A stretch of DNA of 64,000 bases. It comes from Candidatus Latescibacterota bacterium (GTDB lineage Bacteria; Latescibacterota; UBA2968). The first letter of the stretch is position 1. Each line of letters starts with the position of its first letter. Below the pieces are notes generated by a model. It was given only the letters and a program-made list of their open reading frames with translations, had not been told where the DNA came from and did no database searches. Positions 21,979 through 55,028 of this stretch are shown piece after piece. A program made the translations under genes and the position numbers. Where the stretch lies: positions 320,646-384,645 of the forward strand of contig OZ244847.1 of NCBI GenBank assembly GCA_965220765.1, in the 5' to 3' direction.

Positions 21979-22004
21979 AACCCGTGCGAACATGGAGGTG
22001 TCAC

Positions 22005-25000: not shown

Positions 25001-28000
25001 GCTGATCTTCCCGGAGGAGAGTGCGGATAACGATGAAGGCAGGGGCCGGGAAATGCAGGTTCTGCTCGAGGCTCCAGGGGAGGCACCCTCGCGCCTCGTT
25101 CGAATATTCAGCAAAGGAGAGGCCGAGGAGGATTGGACGCTGCACGCGGAATGTCGCGCGCCATCGGATGCCGGCGCCAGGCAAGCCTCTGAGCAGGTGG
25201 ATCTGGAAAGCCTGAAGGCCGGTCTGTCGCCCGAGGACGTGCCGGCGTTTTACCGCGCCAAGGCGGGCGTCGGGATTGATCTCGGCCCATCGTTCCGCAC
25301 GCTGAGGATGGTCTGGTCCCGGGCGGGCGAGGCGTTGGGAGAAGTGTGTTTTCCCGAGGCTCTCGGCGGGAACGATCTCGACGTACACCCGCTCCTGCTC
25401 GACGGTTGCTTTCAGGTGATGGGAGCCGCGCGCAATCCGGGTGGAGCCGAAGACGGAATCACCTATCTGCCGTTCGGCTGGGAGCGGCTGTGGCTGCCGG
25501 ATCGGCTACCGGATCGGTTTCTCTGCCACGTGCGCATGCGGGAGGCTTCGAAGAATCGGGAACCGGATGCCGAAACCGGCGGGTCGCCAGAGGTCTTCGT
25601 GGGGGATTTCCTTCTCTACGACCAGAGTGGGGTCCTGATCGGCGAATTGAGCGGATTCATGGTGAAGCGCGCGACGCGGGCGGCGCTGCTCTCGGCAGTG
25701 GAAGGGGTTCAGGAACTGCTCTACGAGGTCATGTGGCGCGAAAGCGCCCTTGCGCCGGGACTGCTGCCAGCGGATTTCCTTCCGAGTCCGGGAGAGGTTG
25801 CGGACCGCTGGGAGCTGTTCTCCGACTACCTGGCAGCGGAAGGAGTCGACGCCGGATTGAGGCCCGCCTGGTTGGCGGACCTCTCGTGCATGGCGCGGCA
25901 TTTTGCGCTCTCGGCCCTGGAGAAACTCGGATGGGAGAGGAAGGTGGGCACCGCCGTGGACTCCGAAGATTTGCGGCAGCGCCTGGGAGTCCTGGATGAA
26001 CACAGCCGTCTGTTCCGCCGGATGCTCGAAATATTGGCTCGCGCAGGCGTTCTGGAGGCGGCGGGCGAAGATTTTGTCGTTGCCGTAGGGGCTGGAGATC
26101 CCTTGCCAGAAGGAATTCCGGGCAATCCCGAGCAGTTCGCGGCACAAGTGAGCGAGCGTTACTCGTATGCTTCAAGCGAGATCGGGATTTTTCGCAGAAG
26201 CGCGGGTGCCCTGGCGGAAGTGCTTCGCGGCGAAGAGGATCCGCTGTCGCTTCTCTTCGGCAGCGGAGAACCCAGCGCCGCGGATCTCTATTTCAAGGCA
26301 CCGATATATCGAGCGTCGAACCGGATGCTGGGAGACGCGGTGCGAACACTTGTAGCCGGGTTGCCCGAAGGACGGCGCTTGAGGGTGATTGAGGTCGGGG
26401 CGGGTACCGGATCGGCGACCGAATCCGTCCTGCCTGAGCTTCCCGAAGGGCGGTACGACTACATGTACACGGATATCTCGGCGGGTTTCTTCGCGCAGGC
26501 AGAGGGGTTGTTCGGCGATGAGTGTATCGAGTACCGGGTGCTGGATATCGAAAAAGACCCCGTAGAACAGGGATTCGACGCCCACGGTTATGATTTGTTG
26601 ATTGCGTCCAATGTGCTGCACGCCACGCGGTACCTGGAGGAAACGCTGACGCATTGCAGGAGCCTTCTCGCGCCGTCGGGACATCTCGTGGCACTCGAGA
26701 ACCTTTGCGGCCAGGATTGGCTGGATATGACTTTCGGACAATTGGACGGCTGGTGGCGGTTCTCAGACGACTGCCGCCCCACCTACGCCCTGGCGGGGCC
26801 AGACGTATGGCGACAGTCCCTCGGCAGCGTGGGTTTCGAAGGCGTGGAGATTCTGGGACTGGGCGGACCCGACGCCGCCGAGATTCCGGATAGAGGCGTG
26901 ATTCTGGCGCAGCTGCCCGAGGACGTAGCCGAAAGACGCGGAGTATGGGTTCTGGCGGAGGACCGCGGCGGCGCGGCGGCGGTACTGGCCATGGAGTTGG
27001 CGGCGCGCAACCAGACGGTTGTGCTGGCGAGCGATGCAGGTTCGACGGGAGAGGGTCCGGCGGATGAAAAAACTGCTGTCATCCATACGTCCCTGGAGAT
27101 GGAGCACCGAGAATCGTGGCAGTCGCTGCTGGAAGGTCTGCCCGCAGATGCGCCGCTCAGCGGCGTCGTGCATCTCGTGGCGCTCGACGGTCGCGGGTCT
27201 GATACGACGACTGCTGAGATGGCGGAGGACGTAAAACGAGTAGGAGCGAGCGCATTGGCGCTGGCGCAGGGTCTGGCCGACGCCGATGTGACACCCGAGA
27301 AGGGCTTGTGGTTCCTCACGCGGGGCGCGCAGGTGCTGGAGCGCGAACGCGCCGGAGAGCTTGTCGGCGCGACGCTATGGGGTTTCGGAAAGGTACTGGC
27401 CCGGGAAGCATCCCACATGCAGCCGAAGATGATCGATCTGGATCCCGAGCCTACGGCACCGCCGATAGACCTCGCCAATGAACTGCTCTATCCCGATACG
27501 GAAGACCAAATCGTACACCGAGGCAGCCGACGCCGCGTAGCCCGCCTTGTCCGGACCGGCGAGGGGACGGATAGGATAAACTTGCCCGAAGAGCCGGGCT
27601 GGATGCTGGGGGTCGGCGAAGACGGCGCGATCGCTGACCTGCAGGTGGCGCCGACGCCGCTGGAGTCGAAAGAAGTTCGCGTGGCTGTCGAGGCCGCCGG
27701 GTTGAACTTCTGGGATGTGTTCGCGGCGCTCGGTTTGATTGACGAGAAATTCCTGGGCACGGAGTTTTGCGGCCATACCATCGAGGTCGGCTCCGAGGTG
27801 GCGAGCGTTGCGGTGGACGAGCGCGTGGTCGGATTGGCATTCGGCTCTTTCGGGCCGGAAGTGGTGACCCGGGCGGAACTCTTGGCACCCGCGCCACCGG
27901 ATTTGTCCGCCACGGCGCTCGCCTCAATGCCGACGGTGTTCGTGTCAGTCGCGCTGTCTTACGAACTCGCGGGGCTGAAAGCCGGTGACCGCGTGCTGAT

Positions 28001-31000
28001 TCACGCAGGCGCAGGCGGCGTGGGGCTTGCGGCCATCCAGTGGGCGCAGGCAGCGGGAGCGGAAGTGTTCGCGACGGCGAGCGCGCCGAAACAGGCGTAT
28101 CTCCGCTCGCTCGGTGTAAAGCATGTGTTCGACAGCCGTCAGACGAAATTTGGGGAGGAAATCCTCAAGGCCACGGACGGCGCAGGGGTCGATGTGGTAT
28201 TGAACAGCCTGACGGCGGAGGGTTTCATAGACGCGAGTCTGGCGTGTCTGGCGCATGGTGGCCGGTTCGTGGAATTGGCGGCGCGGGACATTCTGAGCGA
28301 GGAAGAGATGGCGGCCGTACGGCCGGACGTGGCCTATTACATCGTGAATCTTCATGCCCTGAAGGGGGATGACCCGGCGCGACCCGGCGCTTTGCTGAGA
28401 GACATCATGGAACGGCTGTCAGCGGGAGAACTAACGCCGCTCATCCACACCAGATGGCCGCTTGCCGAAGCGAGACGGGCCATTGAGTTCATGCGCGACG
28501 GCAGACACATCGGAAAAATCGCCTTTGCGAATTCGCCGCTCACCAGTGGGCGGTTGCGAGAGGATCGAACCTATCTGGTAACAGGTGGTCTGGGTGGGAT
28601 CGGGTGCGTAATGGCCGACTATTTGGCGGATCGCGGCGCAGGTGCAATCGCGCTAAACGGGCGCCGGGCACCGGACCCTGAAGCCGAAGAGACGATCCGC
28701 AGGCTGCGGGAACGCGGCGTGACAGTGCAGGTAGAGATCGCAGATGTGACGGACGCCGATGCAATAGATGAGATGCTGGCGCGGATGGATGAGACGCTAC
28801 CGCCGCTCGGGGGCGTAATCCACAGCGTGGGGGTATTGTCGGACGGTGCGCTCGGGAACCAGAGTTGGGAAAGATTCGAGCAGGTGCTGTGGCCGAAGGT
28901 GTTGGGCGCGTGGCATCTGCATCGCGCGACTGAGGACCGCGATCTGGATATGTTTGTCCTCTTCTCCAGCGTGGCCGGCGTGCTGGGCAATCCGGGCCAG
29001 TCGAATCACGCGGCGGCCAATGCGTTTCTGGATCAACTCGCCGCGCATCGCCGCGCACTCGGACTTCCGGGACAGACCATCGCCTGGGGCGCCTGGTCGG
29101 AACTCGGCGAAGCGGAAGAACAACGGGAACGGATTGCCGAACGGCTGGAAGCGCGAGGAACGGATTGGATCACGCCGCAGCAAGGTCTCAGGGCATTCGA
29201 CCAACTGGTGCGCGAGGACGCCGCGACATCCGTCGTGCTGGCAGCCGATTGGTCGTCTTACGAGGAGGGCCTGGAATACCGGATGCCCCTGCTGGAGGAT
29301 CTGCTCTCCACCATTTCAGAAGACGAGGCCGATTCGCCTGCTCTGGCGGACGACCTGATGTCCCGTCTGGCGGAAACGCCCGCGGCGGAGCGTGAAGCCC
29401 TGTTGGTATCGTTCCTACAGCAGGAATTACAGGCGGTGCTGAGGTTGCCGACAGCACCGGAGCCTACAGTGGGATTTTTCGATCTGGGGATGGACTCGCT
29501 GATGGCCGTAGAGTTGCGAAACCGCCTGAACCGGGCATTTGCCGATGAGTACGTGGTACCCAACACTGTGGTATTTGACTACCCGGACATCGCCCGTCTC
29601 GCCAACCATCTAATTGAGGAACTCGGCGAAGTCAGCACTGCGCCCGTCCCTCCACCCCAGGTGCAACCCGAACCAGAACCACAGACGGAAGTACAGCGCG
29701 AGGACAACGGTATTGCGATTGTGGGCATGGCCTGCCGCTTCCCCGGCGCCCCGGATCTTTCCGCCTTCTGGCAGCAGCTCGAAGCAGGTGCGGACGCGGT
29801 GACCAACGGACGCCGGGATTCCGGTTCATGGAACGCTCTTGCCAAAGACCTTCCTCCCGAATACGCCGCCTATCGCCGGGGCGGATTTGTGGAGGGAATT
29901 GATCAATTTGACGCGAGATTCTTTCGGATTGCGCCGATTGAAGCGCGCATGATGGATCCGCGGCAACGCATGATGCTGGAGACGACCTATCAAGCGCTCG
30001 AGGATGCGGGAATTGATCCAGACAAATTGAGGGGCAGCCGCACCGGGCTATACGCTGGCATCGCCACCAGCGAATACCGGGACCTGATGACAGCCAGCGA
30101 CCACGGCATCAGTTATCTGAGCACTGCCGCGAGCATGACGGTCGGGCGAATTGCTTTCCTTCTCGGTTTGGAGGGACCAACGATACCGGTGGAACTCAAC
30201 TGCGCGTCATCATTGGTCGCGGTACATCAGGCAGTGATGGGTTTGCGAGAGGGCGAAGTGGATATGGCTCTGGTTGGAGGGACACACGCAGTTCTGTCTC
30301 CTGAGTTAACCAAAGAGATGGCGGAGTTGGGGATATTATCGCGGGAAGGGCAGTGCAAAACCTTCGATGCCTCTGCGGATGGCTTCGTCCGGGGTGAGGG
30401 CTGTGGGATGATCGTCCTCAAACGGCTGAGCGAGGCAGAAGCCGATGGCGACCGCATCTGGGGCGTGATCCGCGGGTCAGCGGTCAACCAGAACGGGGCC
30501 AGCGCAGGACCCACAGTACCAAACGGACCGGCGCAGGAGCGGGTGATTGAGGAAGCACTGTCGCGAGCGGGCGTTGCCCCATCAGAAGTGGATTATCTGG
30601 AAGCACACGGGGGTGCGTCGGAGTTGGGCGATCCGATCGAAGTGCAGGCAGCGGCTACTGTTTATGGCAAGGGACGCGAAGCAGACCGACCGCTTTTGAT
30701 CGGCTCTGTGAAGACCAACATCGGTCACCTGGAACCAGCTGCTGGCGTTGCGGCTCTGATCAAGGCAGTACTCGCCATGAAGCGGGGGGTGATTCCTAAA
30801 AACCTGCACTTTGAGAATCCGAGCCCGCATATAGACTGGGACCGGCTTCCAGTACGAGTAACTTCAGAACTGACAGACTGGCCGCGCCATCCCGACCGAC
30901 CGCCGCGGGCGGGGGTCAGCGCCTTCGGGATATCGGGCACAAATGCCCATGCTGTCGTAGAAGGATATGACAGCCCGGATGCAACGCCTGTGGGTTCCGC

Positions 31001-32063
31001 GCAACCCGTTTCTCTGTCGGTCGTGGATCTCATAGGCGAGGAAGAAGAATTCGCTCTGCGCCAGACGCGGCTCCTGCCCCTATCGGGAAAATCCGATGAG
31101 GCACTGCGAGATCTGACAGGACGCTATCTATCGTGGCTCGACGAGCTTGCATCCGAAGATGAGGCGACACTTGCCGACATGGCGTGGACAGCAGGTGTGG
31201 GGCGCAGCCATTTCGATCACCGCGCAGGCATCGTATTCCAGGATGTTGAATCGCTGAGAGAGAGGTTACAGACACTCGCAGAGATCGGTGAAAGACCAGA
31301 ACCGCATACGGCGACAAAGGTCGCCTTCGCGTACACCGGACAGGACAGCCAGTGGATCGGCATGGGGAAAGACCTCTACGAAAGCGAGCCGGTAGTCCGC
31401 GCAGTTCTGGACCGTTGCGACGAAGTCCTTCGGGAAGAGCGTGGCACCTCGTTGCTGGACGTGATGTTCGGTCAGACCGACGATCTATCTGATCTGCCAG
31501 CCATCTATGCACTGGAATCCGCACTTACAGCACTGTGGTCAAGCGTGGGGATTCAGCCCAGCGTGGTGGTCGGACGCGATATCGGGGAAATTGCAGCAGC
31601 GCAAGCGGCAGGCGTCTTTAGCTTAGAGGATGGCTTGCGAATCGCGCTGGAGCGGGACACAGACAGTCTGGAAGCCACCCTCGCAGACGTCACAATCGCA
31701 CCGCCATCTTTGACTCTGGTGAGCAGTGTAACAGGAGAGATCGAGAGCCTTGACGCAGCATACTGGCATCGGCAAGCGCAGGCGCCAGTGGCATTCGACA
31801 AATGCATGAAGAAGCTGGCCGATCAGGGGATTGATGTACTCATCGAGATTGGTCCAAACTCAGTGCTGGACCCGATAGAGGGCGACGCGGAACCACCCGT
31901 TGTCTTGTCGAGCCTGGGAGACGACGGGTTTGTAGAAGCAGTAGCGAAGGCGTATGAAGCGGGACTTTCTGTTTCATTTCCCGGACTATTTGAGGGAGAA
32001 ACGCGCCGCCGCATCTCCTTGCCGAGCTATCCATTCCAGCGTCAGCACTACTGGATTCAATAG
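22005..32063 (+). CDS. type I polyketide synthase: KS-AT-DH-cMT-ER-KR-ACP-KS-AT(degenerate), no ACP/TE at C-terminus
   Basis: Motifs read directly: DTACSSS, HGTGT, GHSLGE, HAFHS, HRVFGRVIAP, VIEVGAGTGS, LIHAGAGGVGLAA, YLVTGGLGGIG, LGMDSLMAVEL, ELNCASS, HGGAS, GRDIGE; RBS GGAGGTG 4 nt before ATG 22005. Confidence 0.9.
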   Translation: MKPDKSDQPIAIIGMACRFPNAPNISAFWRLLEAGQNAVTEGAPGSGVGRVGTLFPNAEVQNDACRFGAFVDDIDLFDATFFRISPVEAQLLDPQQRMMLETSWQALEDAGIDPDRLKGSRTGVYAGISNNDYRGVILGSSRTAEPSASLFSVAGTSLNTAIGRVAFALGLGGPAMAVDTACSSSLVATNQAVAELQQGKADLALAGGVQAILSGRLTELRGNAGMLSPDGQCKAFDASANGFVRGEGCGIVVLKRLSEAEADGDHIWGVIRSTAVNQDGASTGLTVPNGPAQERVIEEALSRAGILPSEVDYVEAHGTGTEVGDPIEINATAAVYGKGREEDNPILVGSVKTNIGHLEPTAGIAGLIKTVLSMKQGVIPKHLHFENPNPNMDWDRLPLRVTSEAMDWPLNAERPPIAGVNSFGWSGTNAHVIVEGYGTPKSSDEEYLPVGLARPVAISLPKSVLPSEEELGARRTRLLPLSGKSDEALRDLARQYLKRDFASEDEALLADMAWTAGVGRSHFPHRAGIVFSDGASLRESLNALAEISTRPAPQTPSKIAFVYTGQGSQWVGMGEHLYHTEPVVRTVLDQCDAVLREARGASLLDVIFGRAGDLSDQEWTQPAIFAIECALTALWKSVGITPGVVLGHSLGELAAAQAAGVFSIEEGVRFAAARGELTATLPGGGAMAAIFADVSQVESALDELNAASTGVGLSIAAYNGAHQVVSGPEEEIETISEHFLAQDIRVSRLRTTHAFHSALVEPMLDKLDAIVSEIAIAPPSLTLVSNVTGQVLETGKRQDSAYWRQHTRKPVAFAPSIETLAGLGVDLVIEVGPHAVLSTMATLSWPDTAGDPPVALPSLLRPSSKVSQAEADRAFTEAVANAYEAGLSVSFAGLFAGETRRRISLPGYPFQRERYWVETPKRRRQSTGHPLLGERHESASGEIAFETEIFPSDPTWLNDHRVFGRVIAPGAFYGAMAISASTAERSGSMVIEEMQLHNALIFPEESADNDEGRGREMQVLLEAPGEAPSRLVRIFSKGEAEEDWTLHAECRAPSDAGARQASEQVDLESLKAGLSPEDVPAFYRAKAGVGIDLGPSFRTLRMVWSRAGEALGEVCFPEALGGNDLDVHPLLLDGCFQVMGAARNPGGAEDGITYLPFGWERLWLPDRLPDRFLCHVRMREASKNREPDAETGGSPEVFVGDFLLYDQSGVLIGELSGFMVKRATRAALLSAVEGVQELLYEVMWRESALAPGLLPADFLPSPGEVADRWELFSDYLAAEGVDAGLRPAWLADLSCMARHFALSALEKLGWERKVGTAVDSEDLRQRLGVLDEHSRLFRRMLEILARAGVLEAAGEDFVVAVGAGDPLPEGIPGNPEQFAAQVSERYSYASSEIGIFRRSAGALAEVLRGEEDPLSLLFGSGEPSAADLYFKAPIYRASNRMLGDAVRTLVAGLPEGRRLRVIEVGAGTGSATESVLPELPEGRYDYMYTDISAGFFAQAEGLFGDECIEYRVLDIEKDPVEQGFDAHGYDLLIASNVLHATRYLEETLTHCRSLLAPSGHLVALENLCGQDWLDMTFGQLDGWWRFSDDCRPTYALAGPDVWRQSLGSVGFEGVEILGLGGPDAAEIPDRGVILAQLPEDVAERRGVWVLAEDRGGAAAVLAMELAARNQTVVLASDAGSTGEGPADEKTAVIHTSLEMEHRESWQSLLEGLPADAPLSGVVHLVALDGRGSDTTTAEMAEDVKRVGASALALAQGLADADVTPEKGLWFLTRGAQVLERERAGELVGATLWGFGKVLAREASHMQPKMIDLDPEPTAPPIDLANELLYPDTEDQIVHRGSRRRVARLVRTGEGTDRINLPEEPGWMLGVGEDGAIADLQVAPTPLESKEVRVAVEAAGLNFWDVFAALGLIDEKFLGTEFCGHTIEVGSEVASVAVDERVVGLAFGSFGPEVVTRAELLAPAPPDLSATALASMPTVFVSVALSYELAGLKAGDRVLIHAGAGGVGLAAIQWAQAAGAEVFATASAPKQAYLRSLGVKHVFDSRQTKFGEEILKATDGAGVDVVLNSLTAEGFIDASLACLAHGGRFVELAARDILSEEEMAAVRPDVAYYIVNLHALKGDDPARPGALLRDIMERLSAGELTPLIHTRWPLAEARRAIEFMRDGRHIGKIAFANSPLTSGRLREDRTYLVTGGLGGIGCVMADYLADRGAGAIALNGRRAPDPEAEETIRRLRERGVTVQVEIADVTDADAIDEMLARMDETLPPLGGVIHSVGVLSDGALGNQSWERFEQVLWPKVLGAWHLHRATEDRDLDMFVLFSSVAGVLGNPGQSNHAAANAFLDQLAAHRRALGLPGQTIAWGAWSELGEAEEQRERIAERLEARGTDWITPQQGLRAFDQLVREDAATSVVLAADWSSYEEGLEYRMPLLEDLLSTISEDEADSPALADDLMSRLAETPAAEREALLVSFLQQELQAVLRLPTAPEPTVGFFDLGMDSLMAVELRNRLNRAFADEYVVPNTVVFDYPDIARLANHLIEELGEVSTAPVPPPQVQPEPEPQTEVQREDNGIAIVGMACRFPGAPDLSAFWQQLEAGADAVTNGRRDSGSWNALAKDLPPEYAAYRRGGFVEGIDQFDARFFRIAPIEARMMDPRQRMMLETTYQALEDAGIDPDKLRGSRTGLYAGIATSEYRDLMTASDHGISYLSTAASMTVGRIAFLLGLEGPTIPVELNCASSLVAVHQAVMGLREGEVDMALVGGTHAVLSPELTKEMAELGILSREGQCKTFDASADGFVRGEGCGMIVLKRLSEAEADGDRIWGVIRGSAVNQNGASAGPTVPNGPAQERVIEEALSRAGVAPSEVDYLEAHGGASELGDPIEVQAAATVYGKGREADRPLLIGSVKTNIGHLEPAAGVAALIKAVLAMKRGVIPKNLHFENPSPHIDWDRLPVRVTSELTDWPRHPDRPPRAGVSAFGISGTNAHAVVEGYDSPDATPVGSAQPVSLSVVDLIGEEEEFALRQTRLLPLSGKSDEALRDLTGRYLSWLDELASEDEATLADMAWTAGVGRSHFDHRAGIVFQDVESLRERLQTLAEIGERPEPHTATKVAFAYTGQDSQWIGMGKDLYESEPVVRAVLDRCDEVLREERGTSLLDVMFGQTDDLSDLPAIYALESALTALWSSVGIQPSVVVGRDIGEIAAAQAAGVFSLEDGLRIALERDTDSLEATLADVTIAPPSLTLVSSVTGEIESLDAAYWHRQAQAPVAFDKCMKKLADQGIDVLIEIGPNSVLDPIEGDAEPPVVLSSLGDDGFVEAVAKAYEAGLSVSFPGLFEGETRRRISLPSYPFQRQHYWIQ
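22026..23315 (+). other. PKS domain KS1 (active-site Cys codon 22548-22550)
   Basis: GMACRF..DTACSSS..EAHGTGT..NIGHLE..GTNAHVIVEGY. Confidence 0.8.
23678..24545 (+). other. PKS domain AT1 (active)
   Basis: YTGQGSQW, GHSLGE (Ser codon 23949-23951), THAFHS. Confidence 0.75.
24790..25660 (+). other. PKS domain DH
   Basis: HPLLGER...LNDHRVFGRVIAPGAFY (HxxxGxxxxP). Confidence 0.65.
26190..26880 (+). other. PKS domain C-methyltransferase
   Basis: SAM motif I VIEVGAGTGS at 26385-26414; ...LLIASNVLHAT. Confidence 0.65.
27500..28535 (+). other. PKS domain ER
   Basis: LIHAGAGGVGLAAIQWAQAAGAEVFATAS NADPH motif. Confidence 0.7.
28560..29100 (+). other. PKS domain KR
   Basis: YLVTGGLGGIG Rossmann motif; ...NHAAANAFLD. 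Confidence 0.7.
29380..29600 (+). other. PKS domain ACP (in cis)
   Basis: LGMDSLMAVELRNRL (Ser codon 29496-29498). Confidence 0.7.
29710..30970 (+). other. PKS domain KS2 (Cys codon 30201-30203)
   Basis: GMACRF..ELNCASS..EAHGGAS..NIGHLE..GTNAHAVVEGY. Confidence 0.75.
31318..32060 (+). other. degenerate, truncated AT2 (Ser to Asp at 31578-31580; about 110 aa shorter, HAFH region missing)
   Basis: YTGQDSQW, GRDIGE in place of GHSLGE; no HAFH motif; ends YPFQRQHYW. Confidence 0.7.
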
Positions 32064-38552: not shown

Positions 38553-38750
38553 TTATACGGTCACTTCCTGGTACGAAAATTCCCTGAGTCCTGCATTGGC
38601 TTTGGCGTGCTCAATTGTCATACTCACGAGATTGCCCTCTTCATCGAGATCGACATAGATGTTTTCATTGATTTCTCTGGTCTCAAAAATTTTTCTATTT
38701 ACAAATTCAACCAGTGCCGTATCAGTATCGGAAAAGTATCGTACTTTCAT
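38553..38750 (-). CDS. DUF2283-like small protein
   Basis: MKVRYFSDTDTALVEF... 65 aa pattern. Confidence 0.45.
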   Translation of the reverse strand: MKVRYFSDTDTALVEFVNRKIFETREINENIYVDLDEEGNLVSMTIEHAKANAGLREFSYQEVTV

Positions 38751-38864: not shown

Positions 38865-40097
38865 ATGGAGCGGATAATCAGCGTGCTGGGTCTGGTGGTC
38901 ATGATGGGCCTGGCCTGGGCTATGAGTGAACACAAAAAGCAGGTGAACCTTCGCGTGGTATGGGGCGGGTTGTTGTTGCAACTTATCCTCGCGGTATTCA
39001 TTTTAAAAACATCAATCGGTGCTGCCATATTTCAAAGCATTGGAGACTTTTTCACCGCCACATTGGGCTTTGTCGATGCGGGCACAAGCCTGGTATTTGG
39101 AGAAGAATACGTCCACCACTTCTTTGCCTTCAAAGTATTGCCCACCATCATCTTCTTTTCCTCATTGATGTCCATTCTCTACTACCTCGGCATCATTCAA
39201 AAAGTCGTCGAAGCATTTGCATGGGTCATGCAACGCACATTGGGCACTTCGGGATCGGAAACACTCGCAGCAGCAGCCAATATTTTTGTTGGACAAACCG
39301 AAGCCCCGCTGATGGTGCGTCCGTACATAAGCAGCATGACAAAATCGGAACTCATGGCATTGATGGTCGGTGGCTTTGCGACCATTGCCGGGGGCGTTCT
39401 GGTCGCCTATGTAGGCATGGGTATAGACGCGGGACACCTCGTAGCCGCGTCGGTCATCTCCGCACCTGCAGCATTGCTCATTTCCAAACTGATGATTCCC
39501 GAAACCGAGCAATCCAGGACCTTGGGACACGTCGAATTAAGTGTAGATGAAAAACATGTCAATGTCGTGGATGCTGCAACCAAAGGGGCTTTGGACGGCA
39601 TGAAACTAACCCTCAACGTCGTCGCAATGCTCATCGCTTTCCTTGCCCTTGTCGCGCTGGTTGATGCCATTCTCGGGCTGATTGGTGAGTGGACTGGCGC
39701 GCTCTTTGGATATAACTGGCACTGGTCCCTTGCCGCACTTTTCGGTTATATCTTTGCACCGTTCGCCTATCTGCTGGGCATTCCCTGGGGCGATTGCTTT
39801 TATGCCGGTGAATTACTGGGCAAGAAGATGGTGCTCAACGAATTTATCGCCTATGCACAAATGATGGAATGGTCCCAGCCCGATTCGGGCGTGGTCTTGA
39901 GCGAGCGGAGCACCTTGATCCTGACTTACGCATTGTGCGGCTTTGCCAACTTTGGCAGTGTGGGCATTCAAATCGGCGGCATCGGCGGCATTGCCCCAGA
40001 GCGCCGTGCAGAATTAGCCATCCTCGGCATACGCGCCATGATCGGCGGCACACTTGCAATGATGATGACCGCCTGTATTGCTGGTATTTTAATTTGA
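38865..40097 (+). CDS. nupC: concentrative nucleoside transporter (NupC/CNT family)
   Basis: Length, TM pattern and conserved CNT segments (..GFATIAGGVLVAYV.., ..NEFIAYAQ..). Confidence 0.75.
   Translation: MERIISVLGLVVMMGLAWAMSEHKKQVNLRVVWGGLLLQLILAVFILKTSIGAAIFQSIGDFFTATLGFVDAGTSLVFGEEYVHHFFAFKVLPTIIFFSSLMSILYYLGIIQKVVEAFAWVMQRTLGTSGSETLAAAANIFVGQTEAPLMVRPYISSMTKSELMALMVGGFATIAGGVLVAYVGMGIDAGHLVAASVISAPAALLISKLMIPETEQSRTLGHVELSVDEKHVNVVDAATKGALDGMKLTLNVVAMLIAFLALVALVDAILGLIGEWTGALFGYNWHWSLAALFGYIFAPFAYLLGIPWGDCFYAGELLGKKMVLNEFIAYAQMMEWSQPDSGVVLSERSTLILTYALCGFANFGSVGIQIGGIGGIAPERRAELAILGIRAMIGGTLAMMMTACIAGILI
40058..40097 (+). repeat. left 40-bp direct repeat (3' end of nupC)
   Basis: aatgatgatgaccgcctgtattgctggtattttaatttga; 38/40 identical to 41129..41168. 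Confidence 0.85.
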
Positions 40098-40217
40098 TAC
40101 CTGAGCCCACCCTCGCGCAGATAAAATGAAAGCTGTTGGTTGACTTTTATTGTTGGGTATGGTAATTTCCGATATATAAGTGGTTCATGCCCCATACAGT
40201 CAATTCCAAAGGAGAAA

Positions 40218-40403
40218 ATGATGGACACACTTGATGTGCGAGGCTTGCCCGATGAATATACCATCTGGCTGCAGAAGATGGTTGATAGTTTGCGGGAACA
40301 AACCCAGCACAGAAAGGCACACAAAGGCAAAGAAATCGTGTTTGCGACGCACAAGTCCCACCTGATTGGCGGATATGATCGAGCAGCGGCTTATGAACCA
40401 TAA
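40218..40403 (+). CDS. RHH (ribbon-helix-helix)-like antitoxin-type small protein
   Basis: LDVRGLPDEYTIWLQKMVDSL fits the beta-strand/helix RHH pattern; RBS AAAGGAG; ATG 40218 or 40221. Confidence 0.35.
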   Translation: MMDTLDVRGLPDEYTIWLQKMVDSLREQTQHRKAHKGKEIVFATHKSHLIGGYDRAAAYEP

Positions 40404-40409
40404 TCCCGA

Positions 40410-40437
40410 GGATATGGCGTTACTGGACACCATATCC
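40410..40437 (+). promoter_or_regulatory. inverted repeat GGATATGG-N12-CCATATCC between the RHH gene and the Phd antitoxin gene (operator or attenuator candidate)
   Basis: 8-bp perfect arms. Confidence 0.3.
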
Positions 40438-40458
40438 TGATTTATGGAGAATTTTGCA

Positions 40459-40707
40459 ATGAATTGTTTTGAGTTGGATCAAGCACAGCAACGGTTCCCT
40501 GAACTCGTGGAGCGAGCCAGACGCGGCGAGGATGTCATTATTACGGAACGCAATCAACCTGTGGTCAAATTTGTGGCTGTTGAGCAGAATGCAACTGTAC
40601 CAGCAGTTCCAACTAAGCGGCGACGGCGACCCGGAAGTGCCAAAGGGCTTGTTCATATAAGCGATGATTTCGACGAACCGCTCGAAGATTTCCGGGAATA
40701 TATGTAA
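40459..40707 (+). CDS. Phd/YefM-family type II antitoxin
   Basis: MNCFELDQAQQRFPELVERARRGEDVIITERNQPVVKFVAV matches the Phd/YefM N-terminal pattern; stop overlaps the toxin ATG (ATGTAATG); alternative ATG at 40444. Confidence 0.65.
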   Translation: MNCFELDQAQQRFPELVERARRGEDVIITERNQPVVKFVAVEQNATVPAVPTKRRRRPGSAKGLVHISDDFDEPLEDFREYM

Positions 40708-41093
40708 TGCGCCTTTTACTCGATACGCACAGTTTTTTATGGTATATAGAAGACGATGACAAGCTCAGCCAGAGAGCAGAGCAAATCATCTCTAATATAG
40801 ATAATGAGGTGTTGCTGAGCATAGGGAGCCTGTGGGAGATAGCCATTAAGTATGGTATTGGTAAGTTGAGCCTGTCGCGTGCCTTCAGCGAGTTCATCCC
40901 AAGGCAACTTCTGATAAACCAAATAGATGTACTACCTATCTCATTACCTCATCTTGCAACATATACCGAACTTCCTTTTTATCACCGCGACCCGTTTGAC
41001 CGCTTGATTATTGCACAGGCTATGGTAGAGGACATACCAGTGGTTAGCAGAGACAAACCCTTTCAGGCGTATTCAATTGATGTGATATGGTAA
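40707..41093 (+). CDS. vapC: VapC-family PIN-domain toxin
   Basis: MRLLLDTHSFLW...SLWEIAIKYGIGKL...HRDPFDRLIIAQA (PIN acidic residues and VapC hallmark segments). Confidence 0.8.
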   Translation: MRLLLDTHSFLWYIEDDDKLSQRAEQIISNIDNEVLLSIGSLWEIAIKYGIGKLSLSRAFSEFIPRQLLINQIDVLPISLPHLATYTELPFYHRDPFDRLIIAQAMVEDIPVVSRDKPFQAYSIDVIW

Positions 41094-41128
41094 TCGTCGC
41101 AGGTAAAAAGTCTTCACTAACGTGGGAT

Positions 41129-41168
41129 AATGATGATGACCGCCTGTGTTGCTGGTATTTTAATATGA
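41129..41168 (+). repeat. right 40-bp direct repeat (copy of the nupC 3' end, still encoding MMMTACVAGILI-stop)
   Basis: aatgatgatgaccgcctgtgttgctggtattttaatatga. Confidence 0.85.
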
Positions 41169-41175
41169 GAAATGC

Positions 41176-41210
41176 AAAAAGGAGATACCGTCTGCTGGTA
41201 TCTCCTTTTT
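41176..41210. terminator. bidirectional rho-independent terminator
   Basis: AAAAAGGAGATACC-GTCTGCT-GGTATCTCCTTTTT, 14-bp perfect stem with A and T tracts on both sides. Confidence 0.75.
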
Positions 41211-41375
41211 CTATTCAATAAAAAAACAGGGACGCACCTGGGCGTCCCTGGGGTAGAAACAATCGAACACACGTTAATTCCCTATACGGGCGACGGTTCG
41301 ATGGGTCATGTTGGTAAACATATTGTCCTATATCGGCAGCAATGTCAATCTATTTTTGGGATATATAATTATAAA

Positions 41376-42671
41376 TCATCCATGAGACCCCTTCACACCA
41401 ATCGGCCAATTAGGGGAGTCTGTGCGCGCATCTTTCATAAAACTCTCGATTTCAGCGATCACATCCGGATGATCCGCGGCGACATCGTTTTCCTCGCCAA
41501 TATCCCTGTCCAAATCGTATAACTCGAGTGGTTCGTCAAGCAATAGGGGCGACGGATTGCGCACGGCCTTCCAATTTTTCCAGCGCACAGCCTGTTTGAA
41601 ACCCCCGCTAAAGCGCTCCCAGTACAAAAAGCGCTCCCCAAGATCCTGTGATTCACCCAACAGCGTCGGCAATATGCTAACGCCATCCATATTCTCTGGC
41701 GCGTCTGTGCCGGTCACGTCTGCAACCGTAGGCATAAAATCGGCGTAATACCACACCTGATCGCTCACAGTCCCCGCAGGGATACGATCGGGCCAATGCA
41801 CAATCATAGGCGTACGCAAACCACCTTCATACATCGTCCCTTTTTGCCCGCGCAAAGCACCACAACTGCCAAATGGTTCCCACCGGCGTGCGGCCCCATG
41901 GTCAGAACCAAAAAACAAAAGCGTATTGTCCTTTACCCCCAGTTCGCGCAACAAATCCGCAATTTGTCCAACCTGTGTATCAATCTTTGTAATCATCGCC
42001 GCATAAACTTTCTCATCATCCGTCCAGGGTTTATCGTCCCAGGCACTCGCATCGGGGATTTCATATCTCCCGTGCGGCAATGTCCACGGCAAGTACAAAA
42101 AAAACGGACCATCGCTATTGTTGCGAATAAAGTCACAGGCAAAGTCAAAAATCATATCGTGAGAATAGTCGTTCTCCTCGCCGTCCAGATTGCCCTTGAG
42201 AATAACCTTCTCTTCATTGTGCCACAAAAAAGGCGGATAATACGAATGCGCATTGCGCTGGTTGAGATAGCCAAACCATTCATCAAATCCCTTGCGCGTG
42301 GGAATACCCGCCGAATCGGGTTCACCCAATCCCCATTTCCCCGTTATCCCAGTGGTATATCCCCCCTCCTTGAGCATCTCGGCAACCGTAAAATCCTCCG
42401 GCTCAAGCGGCACCCGTTTCTGCTCTCCCACACCGCCCACAATGCCCATATTGTCGCGCACCCTCGTATGCCCACTGTGCAAACCCGTCATTAAAACCGA
42501 GCGAGATGGCGCGCAGATTGAAGACCCGGTATAACACTGTGTGAACCGCATGGATTCCGACGCAAGCTGGTCCAATCGGGGTGTGGGAATAACCTTTTGC
42601 CCATAACAACCCAGATCGCCATAGCCAATATCATCACAGAGAATAAAAATAATGTTGGGCAATGACATCAT
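41376..42671 (-). CDS. Cys-type sulfatase (arylsulfatase family)
   Basis: LCDDIGYGDLGCYG...SSICAPSRSVLMTGL (CxPxR FGly motif). Confidence 0.8.
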   Translation of the reverse strand: MMSLPNIIFILCDDIGYGDLGCYGQKVIPTPRLDQLASESMRFTQCYTGSSICAPSRSVLMTGLHSGHTRVRDNMGIVGGVGEQKRVPLEPEDFTVAEMLKEGGYTTGITGKWGLGEPDSAGIPTRKGFDEWFGYLNQRNAHSYYPPFLWHNEEKVILKGNLDGEENDYSHDMIFDFACDFIRNNSDGPFFLYLPWTLPHGRYEIPDASAWDDKPWTDDEKVYAAMITKIDTQVGQIADLLRELGVKDNTLLFFGSDHGAARRWEPFGSCGALRGQKGTMYEGGLRTPMIVHWPDRIPAGTVSDQVWYYADFMPTVADVTGTDAPENMDGVSILPTLLGESQDLGERFLYWERFSGGFKQAVRWKNWKAVRNPSPLLLDEPLELYDLDRDIGEENDVAADHPDVIAEIESFMKDARTDSPNWPIGVKGSHG

Positions 42672-50270: not shown

Positions 50271-50909
50271 TCAACGTCTTTTAAGAAAGACAAAAGATCG
50301 TCTTCGTCGTGTAATGGGTAAGGTCAAAGAGGTTTCAGTAACATAGATGTGGCGTGGAACACCGTTTGTGAACTCACAGAGAGAATCTGGGCCTTTCATT
50401 GAAATAAGTACACCGTGAGGGGCGAGAAACGGTTCTGCCCAATTCCAGAGCTGGGGCAGTCGTGCAACTGCACGGGCTGTACCAACCAGAAATTTACCAG
50501 AGAATGAGGAATCTTCAACAAGGTGCTCAGCGCGATATCTGATAGCGAAAGCGTTTTGAAGGCCGAGCGCAGTAATAGCTTCCTGAAGAAAGAGGTTTTT
50601 CATGCGGGTGGGTTCAAGGAGATAAACTTCGAGGTCGGACCTCATAATCTTGATTACAATACCTGGCAGACCAGCACCTGATCCCAAATCCAGGAGAGGT
50701 CCATCTCCTGGAAGGTGCGGTACCAACGAGAGACAATCGAGAATATGACGTTCCCATATAAAATTGCGATCATTGCGAGAGATCAATCGAACGCGCCCCG
50801 ACCAATCGGTAAGCAAATCGACATATTGCTGGAGCCTGACGGTCTGTTCATAAGAAAAAGAGAGATCAAAGGATCTCTTCGCAAGCTCAATAGCTTTAGC
50901 GGATTGCAT
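50271..50909 (-). CDS. rsmG: 16S rRNA (guanine527-N7)-methyltransferase RsmG
   Basis: ..ILDCLSL...LLDLGSGAGLPGIVIKIM..DLEVYLLEPTRMKNLFLQ.. ; ATG at 50909 chosen (GTG alternative at 50984). Confidence 0.75.
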   Translation of the reverse strand: MQSAKAIELAKRSFDLSFSYEQTVRLQQYVDLLTDWSGRVRLISRNDRNFIWERHILDCLSLVPHLPGDGPLLDLGSGAGLPGIVIKIMRSDLEVYLLEPTRMKNLFLQEAITALGLQNAFAIRYRAEHLVEDSSFSGKFLVGTARAVARLPQLWNWAEPFLAPHGVLISMKGPDSLCEFTNGVPRHIYVTETSLTLPITRRRRSFVFLKRR

Positions 50910-51062
50910 TGGATATACCTTTAGAAGAGGCGGTAAGAAGCAGGCGAGATAACCGCCCACCCCCTCTTGCGTTTCACGTCTCACCGATGTTTCACGTGGA
51001 ACGTTTTACAACTGGTCGCGTCATCCCGTGAGGGTTCTACACAGGACCAGACCAGTTCAACA

Positions 51063-52409
51063 TTATTTTCCGATGCAAAAGGTTTGGAAGATTCGATCAA
51101 GAACATCATCGGGCGTGGTCTCTCCAATGATTGCAGCGAGCGCGTCCAGAGCAACGCGGAGGTCCAGAGCAATAATTTCCCCCGGATTGCCGAATTCAAG
51201 GCTTTGAAGAGCCTGGGAGAGTCCCGTTGAAGCTTGCTGAAGTGCGAGAACATGCCGTTCTTTGGTAACGATTTCGTCAGGCAGGTCGCTCTTTCCCAGG
51301 AGAGTCTCACGAAGGCGACCGCGCAGAGTGGTGATGCCATCGCCCGTTTTGGCTGAGAGAATGATTTGGGGGTGGCAAGGCTGAACGCTTTGCCACCCAG
51401 TGTAAATACCCAGATCGCTCTTATTGAGAACAAGAAACGCCTGGTCATAACGACTGATGTTGTCCAGATCCTGGGAATCTGGTGGAAGCGATCCATCTAC
51501 AATATAGAGAACAATAGCTGCGCGGTCTATGAATTGTTGAGACCGACGCGTACCCTCTCTTTCCACCGGGTCGTCGGTATCGCGAATACCAGCTGTGTCA
51601 ACCAGTGTAACAGCAATTCCATTGAGATCGATTTGCTCTTCAATTGTGTCTCGCGTTGTACCGGGAATATCTGTAACAATCGCACGATCTTCTTCGAGAA
51701 GTCGGTTGAGAAGGCTGGATTTTCCCACATTGGGTTGGCCAGCGAGGGTGACGACGGCACCTTCGCGAATAATTTTTCCGCGTTCATAGGAAAGAATGAG
51801 GTCTTCAATATGCTTTAAAGCCTGAGAGAGTGATGGCTTAATCATCTCGACATCTATCTCTACATCTTCAGAAAAGTCTAAATTAGCTTCGAGAAGCATG
51901 GCCGCCTGACGAATAGATTCTGCCATTTTTACGAAACGGCGATGAAATCCACCTCGGAGTTGAAAAAAAGCAGATTGGAGGCTCAGATCAGATTTCGCGG
52001 TGATCATATCAGAAACTGCTTCTGCCTGCGAGAGATCTATCTTGCCGTTGAGAAAAGCTCGCCTGGTGAATTCTCCTGGACCAGCCGGCCGACCACCCTC
52101 TTGAAATACTGCTTCCACAACCCGTCTGAGGAGAAAAGGGCCTCCATGGCAGTTAAATTCAACTGTATCGTCGCCGGTAAAGGAATTGGGAGCACGCATG
52201 ACCGAGACCAGGACTTTGTCAAAATCCCGACCCTGAATGTAGAGATGTCCAAAAGATAGTTGGCGAGAAGGAAGGTTGCGGAGGGGGGGTTTGCCTCTGA
52301 AGAGACGTTCTCCAATTGAGATGGCATCTGGTCCGCTGAGTCTGATAATGCCAATCGCACCTTCACCTGGAGCTGTAGCGATTGCCGCGATGGTATCGTT
52401 GTCGGACAT
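51063..52409 (-). CDS. mnmE: tRNA modification GTPase MnmE
   Basis: G1 GQPNVGKSSLLN, G-domain motifs, C-terminal CIGK. Confidence 0.9.
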   Translation of the reverse strand: MSDNDTIAAIATAPGEGAIGIIRLSGPDAISIGERLFRGKPPLRNLPSRQLSFGHLYIQGRDFDKVLVSVMRAPNSFTGDDTVEFNCHGGPFLLRRVVEAVFQEGGRPAGPGEFTRRAFLNGKIDLSQAEAVSDMITAKSDLSLQSAFFQLRGGFHRRFVKMAESIRQAAMLLEANLDFSEDVEIDVEMIKPSLSQALKHIEDLILSYERGKIIREGAVVTLAGQPNVGKSSLLNRLLEEDRAIVTDIPGTTRDTIEEQIDLNGIAVTLVDTAGIRDTDDPVEREGTRRSQQFIDRAAIVLYIVDGSLPPDSQDLDNISRYDQAFLVLNKSDLGIYTGWQSVQPCHPQIILSAKTGDGITTLRGRLRETLLGKSDLPDEIVTKERHVLALQQASTGLSQALQSLEFGNPGEIIALDLRVALDALAAIIGETTPDDVLDRIFQTFCIGK

Positions 52410-52422
52410 AGAAATAAACCTG

Positions 52423-54114
52423 TCAGGACGTGCCCAACATCGATTTGGTTTTTTCCATGATGATCTGCTGAGCGAGGGTCAGCACATTGTAGAGCGTGTA
52501 ATAAAAGACGAGGCCAGAGGACATACTCCAAAAAATATAGGTGAGAAAGATGGGCATGATATAAACGAGAATAGCCTGTTTGGGATCTTTCATCATCATC
52601 TTTTGCTGAATGAACATCGATATTCCCATTAAAAGAGGCAAGAGGTGCAGGTCAAAACCACCAATGGGAATGGTATCTGGTTGGGAAAGGTCGGTAATCC
52701 AGAGAGCGAACCCAGCTTGTCGGAGTTCAATGGTCCCGCGAAACAGTGAAAAAAGAGAGAACAATATCGGCATCTGTAAGAGCATGGGTAGGCATCCACC
52801 GATGGGATTGATCTTCTCTTCCCGGTAGAGTCTCATCATGGCCTCGTTCATCTTCTTTTGGTCGCTGGCATAACGCTCGCGAAGTTCGGCAATTTTGGGC
52901 TGGAGTGTCTGCATCTTGGCAGTAGATTCAAGACTCTTGTGCGTGAGTGGGAAGACAACGACTTTGACGAGAATAGAAAAAAGAATTATGACCACGCCGT
53001 AATTTGGAACCAGAGCGTGCATGGCGAGGAACGCTTTAAGAATTAAAATCGTAACTGGCTTGAGAATAGAGCGGACAAAATAAGGACCGTAATCGACAAA
53101 ATCATCGAGGTCCAGTTCTCGTTCAAGTCCATCGAGGTCGCGATTTTGAGCGCGTAAAATGTCATAAGAAATTGGACCAATATACGCGGAGTAATTGATC
53201 GTATGAAGTCCAGAATCAGCATACATATCAAAAGCAAAATCGCGATAAGAAAAGCCATAAGGATCAATCTTATTATCGCCGTAAAGGTCGAGGTCATAAC
53301 GACCCTCGTTGGGGATAACCGCGGCGAGAAAGTATTTATTTCTCACACCAATCCAGGTCAGTTGACCACTTGGAGGCGTCTCTTTATCTTGAAGGCGGTC
53401 TGTGTCCCATGTTTCAACTTCCCCTCCCATATAGGTAACGATTTGTTCGTAAACACCTTCGTAAAAACTCTCTGACGTCCCGCGCTTATTTTCTGTGTCA
53501 GCGAGACTTCCATCCCATGTTATCCCTAATTTATCATCTCGAGCAAGACTTTCAGCTATGACGGAAACGTGAATCCGGTATCGGTTGCCCTGAAATCGGA
53601 AACGTTTCTCGACTGGGCCACGCGGAGATTGAGCACGCAACACGATCAGATCTTGCGTATCACCATAAATATTAAGGCGATCACGATCGGGAGTAAATTC
53701 GAGACCATTTAGGGACTCACTCGCAACAGTAGCACCAAGTCCAGCACCGTTGGGTGGGATCAATTCCAGCCAATTGCCATTGCCATCAAAATAGCTCTTG
53801 AGTTGCCAACTGGTAATCACGCCACCGCGCGTGGAGATGACAGCGCGGTAGAGTTCCGCATCTATGACAATATCACGAGCTTGGAACGTCGATGTAGAGG
53901 CTGGGCTTTTGTCCTGGATAGGAGGGCGTTGAGTTTCGCGTTGTTGTGTGGGTTGAGGTTTGGGAGCTGTATCAGTAATCTGCGGTGGCTCAATCTGGCG
54001 AGGGGCGGATTTTTCTACAGGGGGTGTGTCACCTTGAAAGAATTGCATGTAATACGGCATCAGTATCAAGATCAGGCCGATTAACGCAAAGGCAAATACC
54101 GTACGTCTATCCAT
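52423..54114 (-). CDS. yidC: membrane protein insertase YidC
   Basis: N-terminal TM, large periplasmic domain, conserved C-terminal 5-TM core (..PIFLTYIFWSMSSGLVFYYT..). Confidence 0.85.
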   Translation of the reverse strand: MDRRTVFAFALIGLILILMPYYMQFFQGDTPPVEKSAPRQIEPPQITDTAPKPQPTQQRETQRPPIQDKSPASTSTFQARDIVIDAELYRAVISTRGGVITSWQLKSYFDGNGNWLELIPPNGAGLGATVASESLNGLEFTPDRDRLNIYGDTQDLIVLRAQSPRGPVEKRFRFQGNRYRIHVSVIAESLARDDKLGITWDGSLADTENKRGTSESFYEGVYEQIVTYMGGEVETWDTDRLQDKETPPSGQLTWIGVRNKYFLAAVIPNEGRYDLDLYGDNKIDPYGFSYRDFAFDMYADSGLHTINYSAYIGPISYDILRAQNRDLDGLERELDLDDFVDYGPYFVRSILKPVTILILKAFLAMHALVPNYGVVIILFSILVKVVVFPLTHKSLESTAKMQTLQPKIAELRERYASDQKKMNEAMMRLYREEKINPIGGCLPMLLQMPILFSLFSLFRGTIELRQAGFALWITDLSQPDTIPIGGFDLHLLPLLMGISMFIQQKMMMKDPKQAILVYIMPIFLTYIFWSMSSGLVFYYTLYNVLTLAQQIIMEKTKSMLGTS

Positions 54115-54167
54115 AAATTCAGTCTTTCTACACAGAGAATAATAAAGGAAGGGATTGCAAAAACAAA

Positions 54168-54497
54168 TCAGGAGTCGATAAGACCGACCTTTTGAAATGC
54201 GAGGTGTAGTTCAAGACGGAGTTGGGTATAAGAGACACCGCAGGCGTGGTCTCCTATAGAGATAAGCATGAGACAGCGAGGATGACCTGAAGGTATTAGT
54301 TCGGAACATATTGCACGTACTTGCCGGCGGATGCGATTGCGCCGAACTGCGTTCCCAAATTTTTTTCGAATTGAAATGAGCGTTAGATCCATCTCGGAAG
54401 TACCAACCTGAACATGAACCCAACGCCCACGAAAGATCTGGCCGTGCTGTCGAATTTTCGCTATTTCGCGTCGAATGCGTAGGTTAGGTGTTCCCAT
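54168..54497 (-). CDS. rnpA: ribonuclease P protein component RnpA
   Basis: Basic 109-aa protein with RNR motif (AVRRNRIRRQVR); positioned between rpmH and yidC. Confidence 0.75.
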   Translation of the reverse strand: MGTPNLRIRREIAKIRQHGQIFRGRWVHVQVGTSEMDLTLISIRKKFGNAVRRNRIRRQVRAICSELIPSGHPRCLMLISIGDHACGVSYTQLRLELHLAFQKVGLIDS

Positions 54498-54511
54498 AAC
54501 ACACCTACATA

Positions 54512-55019: not shown

Positions 55020-55028
55020 CCCCCCCCC
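55020..55028 (+). repeat. C9 homopolymer tract about 150 nt upstream of dnaA
   Basis: tttcCCCCCCCCCtcaattg. Confidence 0.6.

Follow-up and report, generated by a model that had tools for sequence, protein, structure and literature searches.

In rhs, CDI and T6SS effector loci, displacement of the 3' end of a gene (C-terminal displacement) has been described (Jackson et al. 2009, PMC2935791; Kirchberger et al. 2017, PMC5361080), and the routes proposed there, a RecA-driven circular intermediate or homology-facilitated illegitimate recombination (HFIR), need no integrase (PMC2935791, PMC5361080). The locus analysed here resembles them in that a stretch of gene would have come in with new downstream genes by homology on one side, in that the old 3' end would have been shunted downstream, where it is silent and lies beside its original downstream DNA, and in that repeats of a gene fragment bracket the insert. 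It differs in that the gene is a housekeeping transporter rather than a polymorphic toxin, in that no more than 40 nt were displaced and these encode the same peptide, so that nothing new is placed on the protein, in that the cargo is a toxin-antitoxin (TA) operon rather than a toxin tip with its immunity gene, and in that the arrays are only one to two units deep rather than long strings. When direct repeats restore a gene's 3' end, the usual interpretation is that they are att sites. Integrative elements at gene 3' ends and their integrase-less derivatives (CIMEs, satellites) share with this locus the end repeats, the intact target, the existence of empty sites and tandem stacking; here, unlike there, the scanned cargo contains no integrase, the repeats lack site-like conservation, one "repeat" can be shown to be the tail left by a second, since deleted copy of the gene, and the module also occurs without a repeat. 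Integron gene cassettes, including the TA cassettes of chromosomal integrons, are likewise small modules, often TA pairs, at one position, but the locus has no intI and no imperfect hairpin of the attC type, and its modules have a promoter-like box of their own and are sited where an unrelated gene ends.

All positions refer to the window, which is the whole 64-kb stretch of DNA that was analysed, in forward numbering. An intact gene on the + strand (38865..40097) encodes a 410-aa concentrative nucleoside transporter of the CNT/NupC family, with Pfam matches to Nucleos_tra2_N, Gate and Nucleos_tra2_C (best, Nucleos_tra2_C, E=7e-79) and 87-97% amino acid identity to its orthologues in Latescibacterota MAGs. 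The stop codon of this nupC gene and the 13 codons before it, reading MMMTACIAGILI up to the stop, constitute copy 1 of a 40-nt direct repeat (40058..40097, +), and copy 2 (41129..41168, +) begins 1,071 nt after the start of copy 1, leaving 1,031 nt in between. The copies differ at 2/40 positions, which in the nupC frame amount to one Ile to Val replacement and one silent change of ATT to ATA, and homology stops at 40 nt on either side. The repeat was thus correctly described in the initial annotation, and the search for further copies that it proposed, run over the entire window with up to three mismatches allowed, returned just these two; 100 shuffled sequences gave no match. The 40-mer contains no hairpin and no inverted repeat, and neither copy, folded as DNA on either strand, did better than shuffles (z from 0 to -1.1). 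Eight nucleotides past copy 2 begins hairpin 1 (41177..41209), which has an A-run, a 14-bp stem and a T-run and resembles a bidirectional intrinsic terminator, as had been noted from the sequence. Hairpin 2 (41227..41250, -), which is GC-rich, resembles a terminator for the convergent sulfatase gene (41376..42671, -; PF00884, E=1.4e-52), and the hairpin region folds with -52.1 kcal/mol (z = -4.6). The sulfatase gene is a conserved neighbour in relatives and forms the right-hand flank of a gap, beginning after nupC, whose contents vary.

Between the copies lie the three small genes that had been reported, preceded by two short segments. A spacer after the nupC stop, the "leader" (40098..40133, +), follows nupC in cassette-bearing relatives and is a shortened form of the 46-nt leader found in L011, L036 and L168. 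It is followed by a conserved box (40134..40170, +) that includes TTGACT (40140-40145), two direct repeats of GGTTGG, and TAATTTCC (40163-40170), which is similar to the -7 motif of Bacteroidota. The 22-nt core of the box, GTTGACTTTTRTKGTWGGGTAT, occurs once in the window and, in 12 related loci, only at the nupC-sulfatase locus; it has no occurrence in viral contigs. Judged by its conservation and position, the box is probably the promoter or operator of the module. The promoter-like sequence claimed earlier is present as a conserved element, but a sigma-70 scan does not flag it, and TTGACT is separated from TATGGT by 12 nt. The next segment is a mini-module (40171..40413, +) that is present or absent among relatives and contains ORF1 (40218..40403, +), an orphan coding sequence of 61 aa. 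The suggestion that its product is RHH-like is left unproven by the absence of any Pfam or NCBIfam match and by an AlphaFold (AF2) model that consists of one long helix and a conserved low-confidence C-terminus (mean pLDDT 68). Only 33 homologues of ORF1 were found, each at least 60% identical, and this 243-nt ORF1 block also stands on its own within type I R-M loci. Carriage of the box elsewhere by ORF1 was considered and rejected, as those loci have the 243 nt alone in common with the window, without box or 40-mer.

The other two genes are an antitoxin gene (40459..40707, +), whose 82-aa product joins a Phd/YefM N-terminus (PF02604, E=6.6e-8) to a DUF2281/VapB-type C-terminus (PF10047, E=2e-7) and matches the NCBIfam models TA_VapB and phd_fam, and a gene for a VapC-type PIN-domain toxin of 128 aa (40707..41093, +; PF01850 over residues 4-122, E=1.3e-15). 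The acidic positions D6, E44, D98 and D116 of the toxin are present in the translation, read by eye. The antitoxin gene is upstream and co-oriented and overlaps the toxin gene by 1 nt. By these features the pair is a predicted type II TA system of the VapBC type, a PIN toxin with its adjoining antitoxin, and the Pfam and NCBIfam matches bear out the Phd/YefM and VapC identities first assigned. It is like VapBC systems with an antitoxin of the Phd/YefM fold in gene order, in the 1-nt overlap and in the size of both products, and nothing sets it apart from them except the additional upstream 61-aa ORF, which only some alleles possess. VapC has thousands of homologues, and those named in their source are labelled VapC family toxin. 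A metagenome scan with VapC found relatives at no more than 58% identity and thus no further alleles of the locus; in an exact look-up, neither the VapC of the window nor P0135 was on record. Of the 13 relatives that carry the pair, 7 have it in degraded form, which implies that selection for it is weak. The idea that the pair is a self-contained mobile unit was rejected, because in two unrelated contexts (L166 and L167, 85% nucleotide identity) only the two coding sequences are in common with it, without box and without repeat.

The locus was compared with the fetched loci of about 25 related sponge-type Latescibacterota genomes. Empty sites, in which nupC, a terminator and the sulfatase gene lie within approximately 60-120 bp, are found in four outgroup genomes and in the ingroup genomes L004, L008, L009 and L020. 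Their occurrence in outgroups and in some close relatives identifies the TA module as an insertion, as the initial annotation had supposed. Near-identical relatives differ in a patchy manner: L020 is empty, L161 has the TA module with the repeat and L162 has it without. In L006, nupC directly abuts a hairpin equal to hairpin 1 of the window; from this contiguity it follows that copy 2, which stands before hairpin 1 in the window, is the old end of nupC, and that copy 1 is the one that now completes the gene. The corresponding orphan copy of L002 is followed by termB, the terminator type of the empty genomes L004 and L008, and so the orphan is contiguous with native downstream DNA in both comparisons. 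On its other side, copy 2 of the window abuts the spacer after VapC (41094..41128, +) at a junction, ...CACTAACGTGGGAT|, that is also present in L002, L007, L036, L161 and L168 with slippage of an ATG triplet as the sole difference. Independent assemblies, some of them chromosome-level, show the arrangement of the window too, and it is therefore not an assembly artefact. The orphan copies of L002, L007 and L161 have lost the stop codon, and orphan copies also take non-synonymous changes, while all 17 of 17 functional nupC ends retain the reading frame and the stop codon and show no replacements beyond conservative ones between Ile and Val; the orphan is unconstrained where the attached copy is intact.

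The gap itself is highly variable. At least 12 distinct deletion or fusion junctions are found within its 1-4 kb in approximately 15 genomes, from which it follows that illegitimate joins are common there, and the deletions are too many for a single ordered history of all gap alleles to be reconstructed. Other cargo of the gap in relatives comprises an IS256 element, an NYN-domain gene, a trio of PP2C, vWA and kinase genes, and extra sulfatase genes. Remnants of termB were considered after the orphan of L161 and rejected, since alignment with L010 revealed another native segment, the junction to which has short TAAA/ATAT microhomology. An apparent second cassette, consisting of a sulfatase gene and DegT, is the only other cargo bounded by the 40-mer, and it is not enclosed between clean att copies. 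On its right it is bounded by a nupC promoter with 25-138 nt from the start of that gene, fused to the 40-mer. In L036, L168 and L169 the middle 40-mer is joined to the nupC promoter, the start codon and approximately 25 nt, and the fusion falls at CTTG microhomology; L005 keeps the second nupC promoter and 138 nt with an in-frame stop; and in L007 the second nupC copy has been deleted entirely. By its sequence, this boundary is a decayed second copy of nupC and not an att core.

The explanation that probably accounts for the locus, held with some confidence rather than with certainty, is that copy 2 is the displaced original 3' end of nupC, left behind by homology-anchored recombination in a gap prone to rearrangement. 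The nupC-sulfatase gap would be a rearrangement hot spot in this sponge-type Latescibacterota clade, into which came DNA consisting of the end of a nupC gene and a TA operon with its box and, optionally, the 61-aa ORF. Recombination would have been anchored by nupC homology on the left side, and on the right side the incoming DNA would have been joined at a point 40 nt short of the resident stop codon, either illegitimately, by HFIR, or from a small circle containing about 40 nt of nupC that was integrated by a single crossover; the junction of such a circle would read ...CACCAACGTGGG-40-mer-leader-box. The incoming copy would now complete nupC, and the resident last 40 nt with the resident terminator would have been pushed 1,071 nt downstream to become a silent, decaying orphan. 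Afterwards the 40-mers, together with the long nupC and sulfatase flanks, would allow the module to be moved or swapped between strains, or deleted, by host homologous recombination, with no dedicated recombinase needed at any step. We infer how, and in which direction, the founding event took place, and a dependence on RecA, from the arrangements that survive. A donor genome with the predicted arrangements was not found among the fetched loci of relatives. Microhomology is present as CTTG at the L036/L168 junction and is not recognisable at the junction of the window. Besides the missing donor and the lack of recognisable microhomology at that junction, three observations tell against displacement of the resident 3' end: the source of the 7 nt ACGTGGG that adjoin copy 2 is not recognised; the junction of the nupC start with the 40-mer in L036 and L168 ends about 8 nt from the first junction, a coincidence of approximately 1% for random breakpoints; and one and the same element-side junction is found before native downstream sequences of two kinds, which would require a crossover within at most 40 nt of homology, possible for RecA but inefficient.

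A purely local origin would dispense with incoming DNA: if the TA genes had originally followed nupC, unequal exchange could have produced a tandem duplication whose start lay 40 nt ahead of the stop, and deletions could then have removed most of the second unit. Deletions are indeed rampant in the gap, segmental duplication of nupC is documented in L005, L036 and L168, and in L003 and L011 the leader and box directly follow nupC with no second 40-mer. Such a history is nevertheless unlikely, as a tandem duplication would predict the leader after the orphan, whereas the orphan adjoins DNA found after nupC where the arrangement is module-free (hairpin 1 in L006, termB in L004 and L008); the sites that distinguish the two copies are polymorphic among lineages, and at least three events are needed in place of one. 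Direct repeats that bracket an insert could also be a transposon-type target-site duplication, a chance match or an assembly error, and the probability left for these together is negligible: 40 nt is far above known target duplications, as the initial annotation had argued; the module has neither terminal inverted repeats nor a transposase; no shuffle out of 100 contained a second copy; and the structure is repeated in independent long-read assemblies.

The 40-mer might instead be the att core of a recombinase encoded elsewhere, the units from box to 40-mer being integrase-less cassettes, CIME-like or integron-like, that are mobilised in trans. In favour of this, the target gene regains its 3' end through the direct repeats, and there are empty sites with a single copy; the same element-side junction stands before two native downstream sequences; L036 and L168 hold two tandem units, each with a box at the start and a 40-mer at the end; and two independent junctions lie no more than about 8 nt apart. 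An att model does not, however, predict a nupC promoter and start codon fused to the middle 40-mer, nor the 138 nt of that second nupC that L005 retains. The module is also found without a second 40-mer (box, Phd and VapC in L006, L162 and L001) and elsewhere relative to the terminator (downstream of it in L006), and relatives having the segment without repeats were what the initial annotation had named as evidence against its proposal. Moreover, orphan copies decay and the left edge shifts by triplet slippage, and neither copy has the inverted-repeat or hairpin architecture of an attC-type site. The search for a tyrosine or serine recombinase that had been recommended found no recombinase or transposase, and no intI, among the 37 largest ORFs of the window, in agreement with the earlier remark that no integrase is nearby. 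In the scanned gap cargo ORFs of L003, L010 and L011 there was one IS256 transposase and no integrase or recombinase, so that neither the element nor a related element at the same site supplied one among the ORFs scanned; the called genes of L161, L162 and L168 with precomputed Pfam matches were all accounted for. The 40-mer and the box had no match in 2.9 million viral contigs, and thus no phage or satellite there has a matching attP. Mobilisation in trans of this kind is quite improbable, and the proposed att duplication of the integron or integrase type is unsupported. Its most far-reaching form, in which the last 40 nt of nupC are a true site of a trans-acting recombinase and the units from box to 40-mer are integron-like cassettes that bear promoters, would explain the spacing of about 8 nt between junctions and the single element-side junction before different native terminators, and it would make the end of a housekeeping gene a docking site for cassettes with either the TA module or the sulfatase and DegT genes, but it is very unlikely.

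On the best reading, the TA module is of an ordinary type, its setting is a recombination hot spot, and no new kind of system is involved. It offers a well-sampled case, with several chromosome-level genomes of uncultured sponge symbionts among those compared, in which a chromosomal TA module has the look of a site-specific mobile cassette although a scar left by host recombination is the simpler explanation. It is thus a caution for the prediction of islands and att sites, and its alleles form a natural series for 3'-end displacement outside polymorphic-toxin loci.

The window's nupC gene (38865-40097), encoding a 410-aa CNT-family transporter with the Pfam domains Nucleos_tra2_N, Gate and Nucleos_tra2_C, ends in 40 nt (copy 1, 40058-40097) that recur at 41129-41168 (copy 2) with two mismatches, which in the nupC frame amount to one Ile-to-Val and one silent change; homology ends sharply on either side. 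These are the only two copies in all 64 kb at up to three mismatches, and none of 100 shuffled sequences contained a second one. The 1,031 nt between them hold a 36-nt leader, a conserved box (40134-40170) of TTGACT and two GGTTGG repeats, the 61-aa ORF1 (40218-40403), an 82-aa antitoxin with Phd/YefM and DUF2281 matches (40459-40707) and, overlapping it by one base, a 128-aa PIN toxin (40707-41093). Two strong hairpins come after copy 2 (41177-41209 and 41227-41250; -52.1 kcal/mol, z = -4.6), and beyond them lies a convergent sulfatase gene (41376-42671), whose 3' end comes first. The initial annotation described the repeat, gene content and terminator accurately, apart from calling ORF1 RHH-like: ORF1 has no Pfam or NCBIfam match, and AF2 predicts a single long helix and a tail of low confidence. 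The ORF1 family is tiny, with about 33 members, all from sponge-symbiont-type metagenomes, and both of its termini are conserved, the C-terminal one reading IVFATHKSHLIxGYDRAAAYE. Related genomes also have the ORF1 block (40171-40413, 243 nt) by itself, without the box, within type I restriction-modification operons, where it lies on the opposite strand (loci L170-L177, around 4950-5195). A palindrome with 12-nt arms (AGGATATGGCGT / ACACCATATCCT) and a 6-nt loop, between ORF1 and the antitoxin gene (40409-40438), may act as an operator or as a small terminator.

About 22 Candidatus Latescibacterota MAGs, many assembled to chromosome level, encode orthologues of the nupC protein that are 87-97% identical, and further loci of the same neighbourhood were gained through VapC and ORF1 homologues; the window region was divided into named segments, each of which was mapped by BLAST onto every related locus. 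Across these relatives, what lies between nupC and the sulfatase gene (the gap) is extremely variable. In four outgroup genomes (L012, L013, L014, L031) and four ingroup genomes (L004, L008, L009, L020) the site is empty, with nupC, a short terminator (termB) and the sulfatase gene all within about 60-120 bp, which bears out the claim that the module is an insertion. The claim that the insert regenerates the end of nupC is likewise supported, since L006 has, directly after its nupC, the same hairpin that the window has behind copy 2; in L006 the box, phd and vapC lie 190 nt further, past the terminator region, without flanking 40-mers. The full module of the window recurs in L002 together with a second 40-mer, after which comes termB; L161 has box, phd and vapC with a second 40-mer; and L162, very near kin of L161 and of the empty L020, has the module of L161 without that 40-mer. 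Modules are partly deleted in L001, L003, L010 and L011. Trees made for nupC, for the sulfatase and for the gene after it show a patchy spread of these states among close relatives, and therefore recombination in the core genes on either side is exchanging whole alleles of the gap. Upstream of nupC, a DUF2283 gene (38553-38750) is also variable, being absent in L161 and joined by an extra 81-aa gene in L162.

Other cargo of the gap includes an IS256 transposase (L010), an NYN-domain gene (L010, L011), a class-V aminotransferase adjoining a 449-aa protein with no Pfam match (L011), a trio of PP2C phosphatase, vWA protein and protein kinase (L003), and a second sulfatase with a DegT aminotransferase (L005, L007, L036, L168). 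Such cargo lies at L003 9237-12884, L010 10053-11375 and L011 7607-11493, and part of it resembles a candidate defence-island hot spot. The NYN-domain gene is intact at L010 8915-9607 and L011 7607-8299, and the window's terminator region after copy 2 (41117-41272, minus strand) contains a remnant of its 5' end and upstream region, in which a small ORF (MCSIVSTPGTPRCVPVF...) corresponds to MCSIIFTPRDAKCVPVF... of the intact gene; thus the terminator segment is itself a deletion relic.

L036, L168 and L169 each contain three 40-mers. A first impression of two tandem cassettes was undone by what lies left of the middle 40-mer: a nupC promoter region with its ribosome-binding site, then the ATG and some 25 coding nucleotides, which continue in frame into the 40-mer across a CTTG microhomology. 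In L005 this promoter precedes 138 nt of nupC that include an in-frame stop, and the deletion junction that comes next is a different one; in L007 everything is deleted from where DegT starts as far as the final 15 nt of vapC. From these remnants of varied length and the L007 deletion it follows that the lineage once had a second nupC. Judging from the sequences, this second gene was evidently worn down by different deletions, and the 40-mer there is the tail of the dead copy. The junction before copy 2 (...CACTAACGTGGGAT|AATGATGATG) is common to the window, L002, L007, L036, L161 and L168, the sole difference being the number of ATG triplets. Orphan 40-mers carry non-synonymous changes and have lost the stop codon in L002, L007 and L161; functional copies keep frame and stop (17 of 17), with at most conservative Ile/Val changes.

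The integrase/att mechanism proposed in the initial annotation is not supported, because no recombinase or transposase is encoded among the window's 37 largest ORFs, the 40-mer folds no better than shuffled sequence (both copies, both strands), and the L162 and L006 modules lack a second 40-mer. These 37 ORFs are all metabolic or housekeeping and include several sulfatases, a 3,359-aa type I polyketide synthase (21984-32063; KS, AT, DH, methyltransferase, ER, KR, ACP and second KS domains) and dnaA (55176-56564) with yidC, mnmE and gidB just upstream (50271-56564); the window likely covers the replication-origin region, about 14 kb from the repeat. Elsewhere, at 11052-19539, after each of two DUF6785/DUF6784 proteins (11052-12998, 14928-16949) comes a protein rich in TPRs (13068-14894, which also has a PMT_2 domain, and 16960-19539). 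The IS256 transposase is the sole mobility gene among scanned cargo ORFs of the relatives' gaps, no terminal inverted repeats of the module were found, and both 40-mer and box are absent from a viral-contig collection. The box is confined to the nupC locus among all 178 fetched loci; the phd-vapC pair turns up in two unrelated contexts, 85% identical in nucleotides, and only these two coding sequences are common with the window there.

On balance, copy 2 is probably the resident nupC end, still attached to the resident terminator, copy 1 having come with the inserted DNA through homology-anchored recombination. The simplest route would be recombination anchored by nupC homology, with the other end joined 40 nt before the resident stop, either by homology-facilitated illegitimate recombination or by one crossover with a small circle that bore some 40 nt of nupC; survivors would be only those events that left nupC intact. 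At least a dozen other illegitimate junctions lie within the same few kilobases of the gap, so one more needs no special enzyme. With two 40-mers in place, host recombination could delete the module or carry it into another nupC background, which would account for termB in L002 versus hairpin 1 (41177-41209) in the window. That the repeat arose purely locally, through a tandem duplication and later deletions, is unlikely, and service of the 40-mer as an att site by a recombinase encoded elsewhere is doubtful indeed. A slim chance is kept for a true site-specific system at the nupC 3' end, for two reasons. The window-type and L036/L168 junctions are independent events, yet in a gene of 1.2 kb their end points lie no more than about 8 nt apart; and one element-side junction stands ahead of two different native terminators, for which an exchange inside 40 nt or less is required. 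A microhomology hot spot at the ATG triplets and CTTG, with RecA acting on short homology, can explain both.

On this preferred reading, the repeat is the displaced tail of nupC, and the module is an ordinary toxin-antitoxin operon of the VapBC type, sited in a recombination hot spot. The same process has been put forward to explain how C-terminal tips came to be displaced at rhs loci (PMC2935791) and how orphan immunity arrays formed at T6SS loci (PMC5361080), and the nupC tail adds a new example to this known kind of event.
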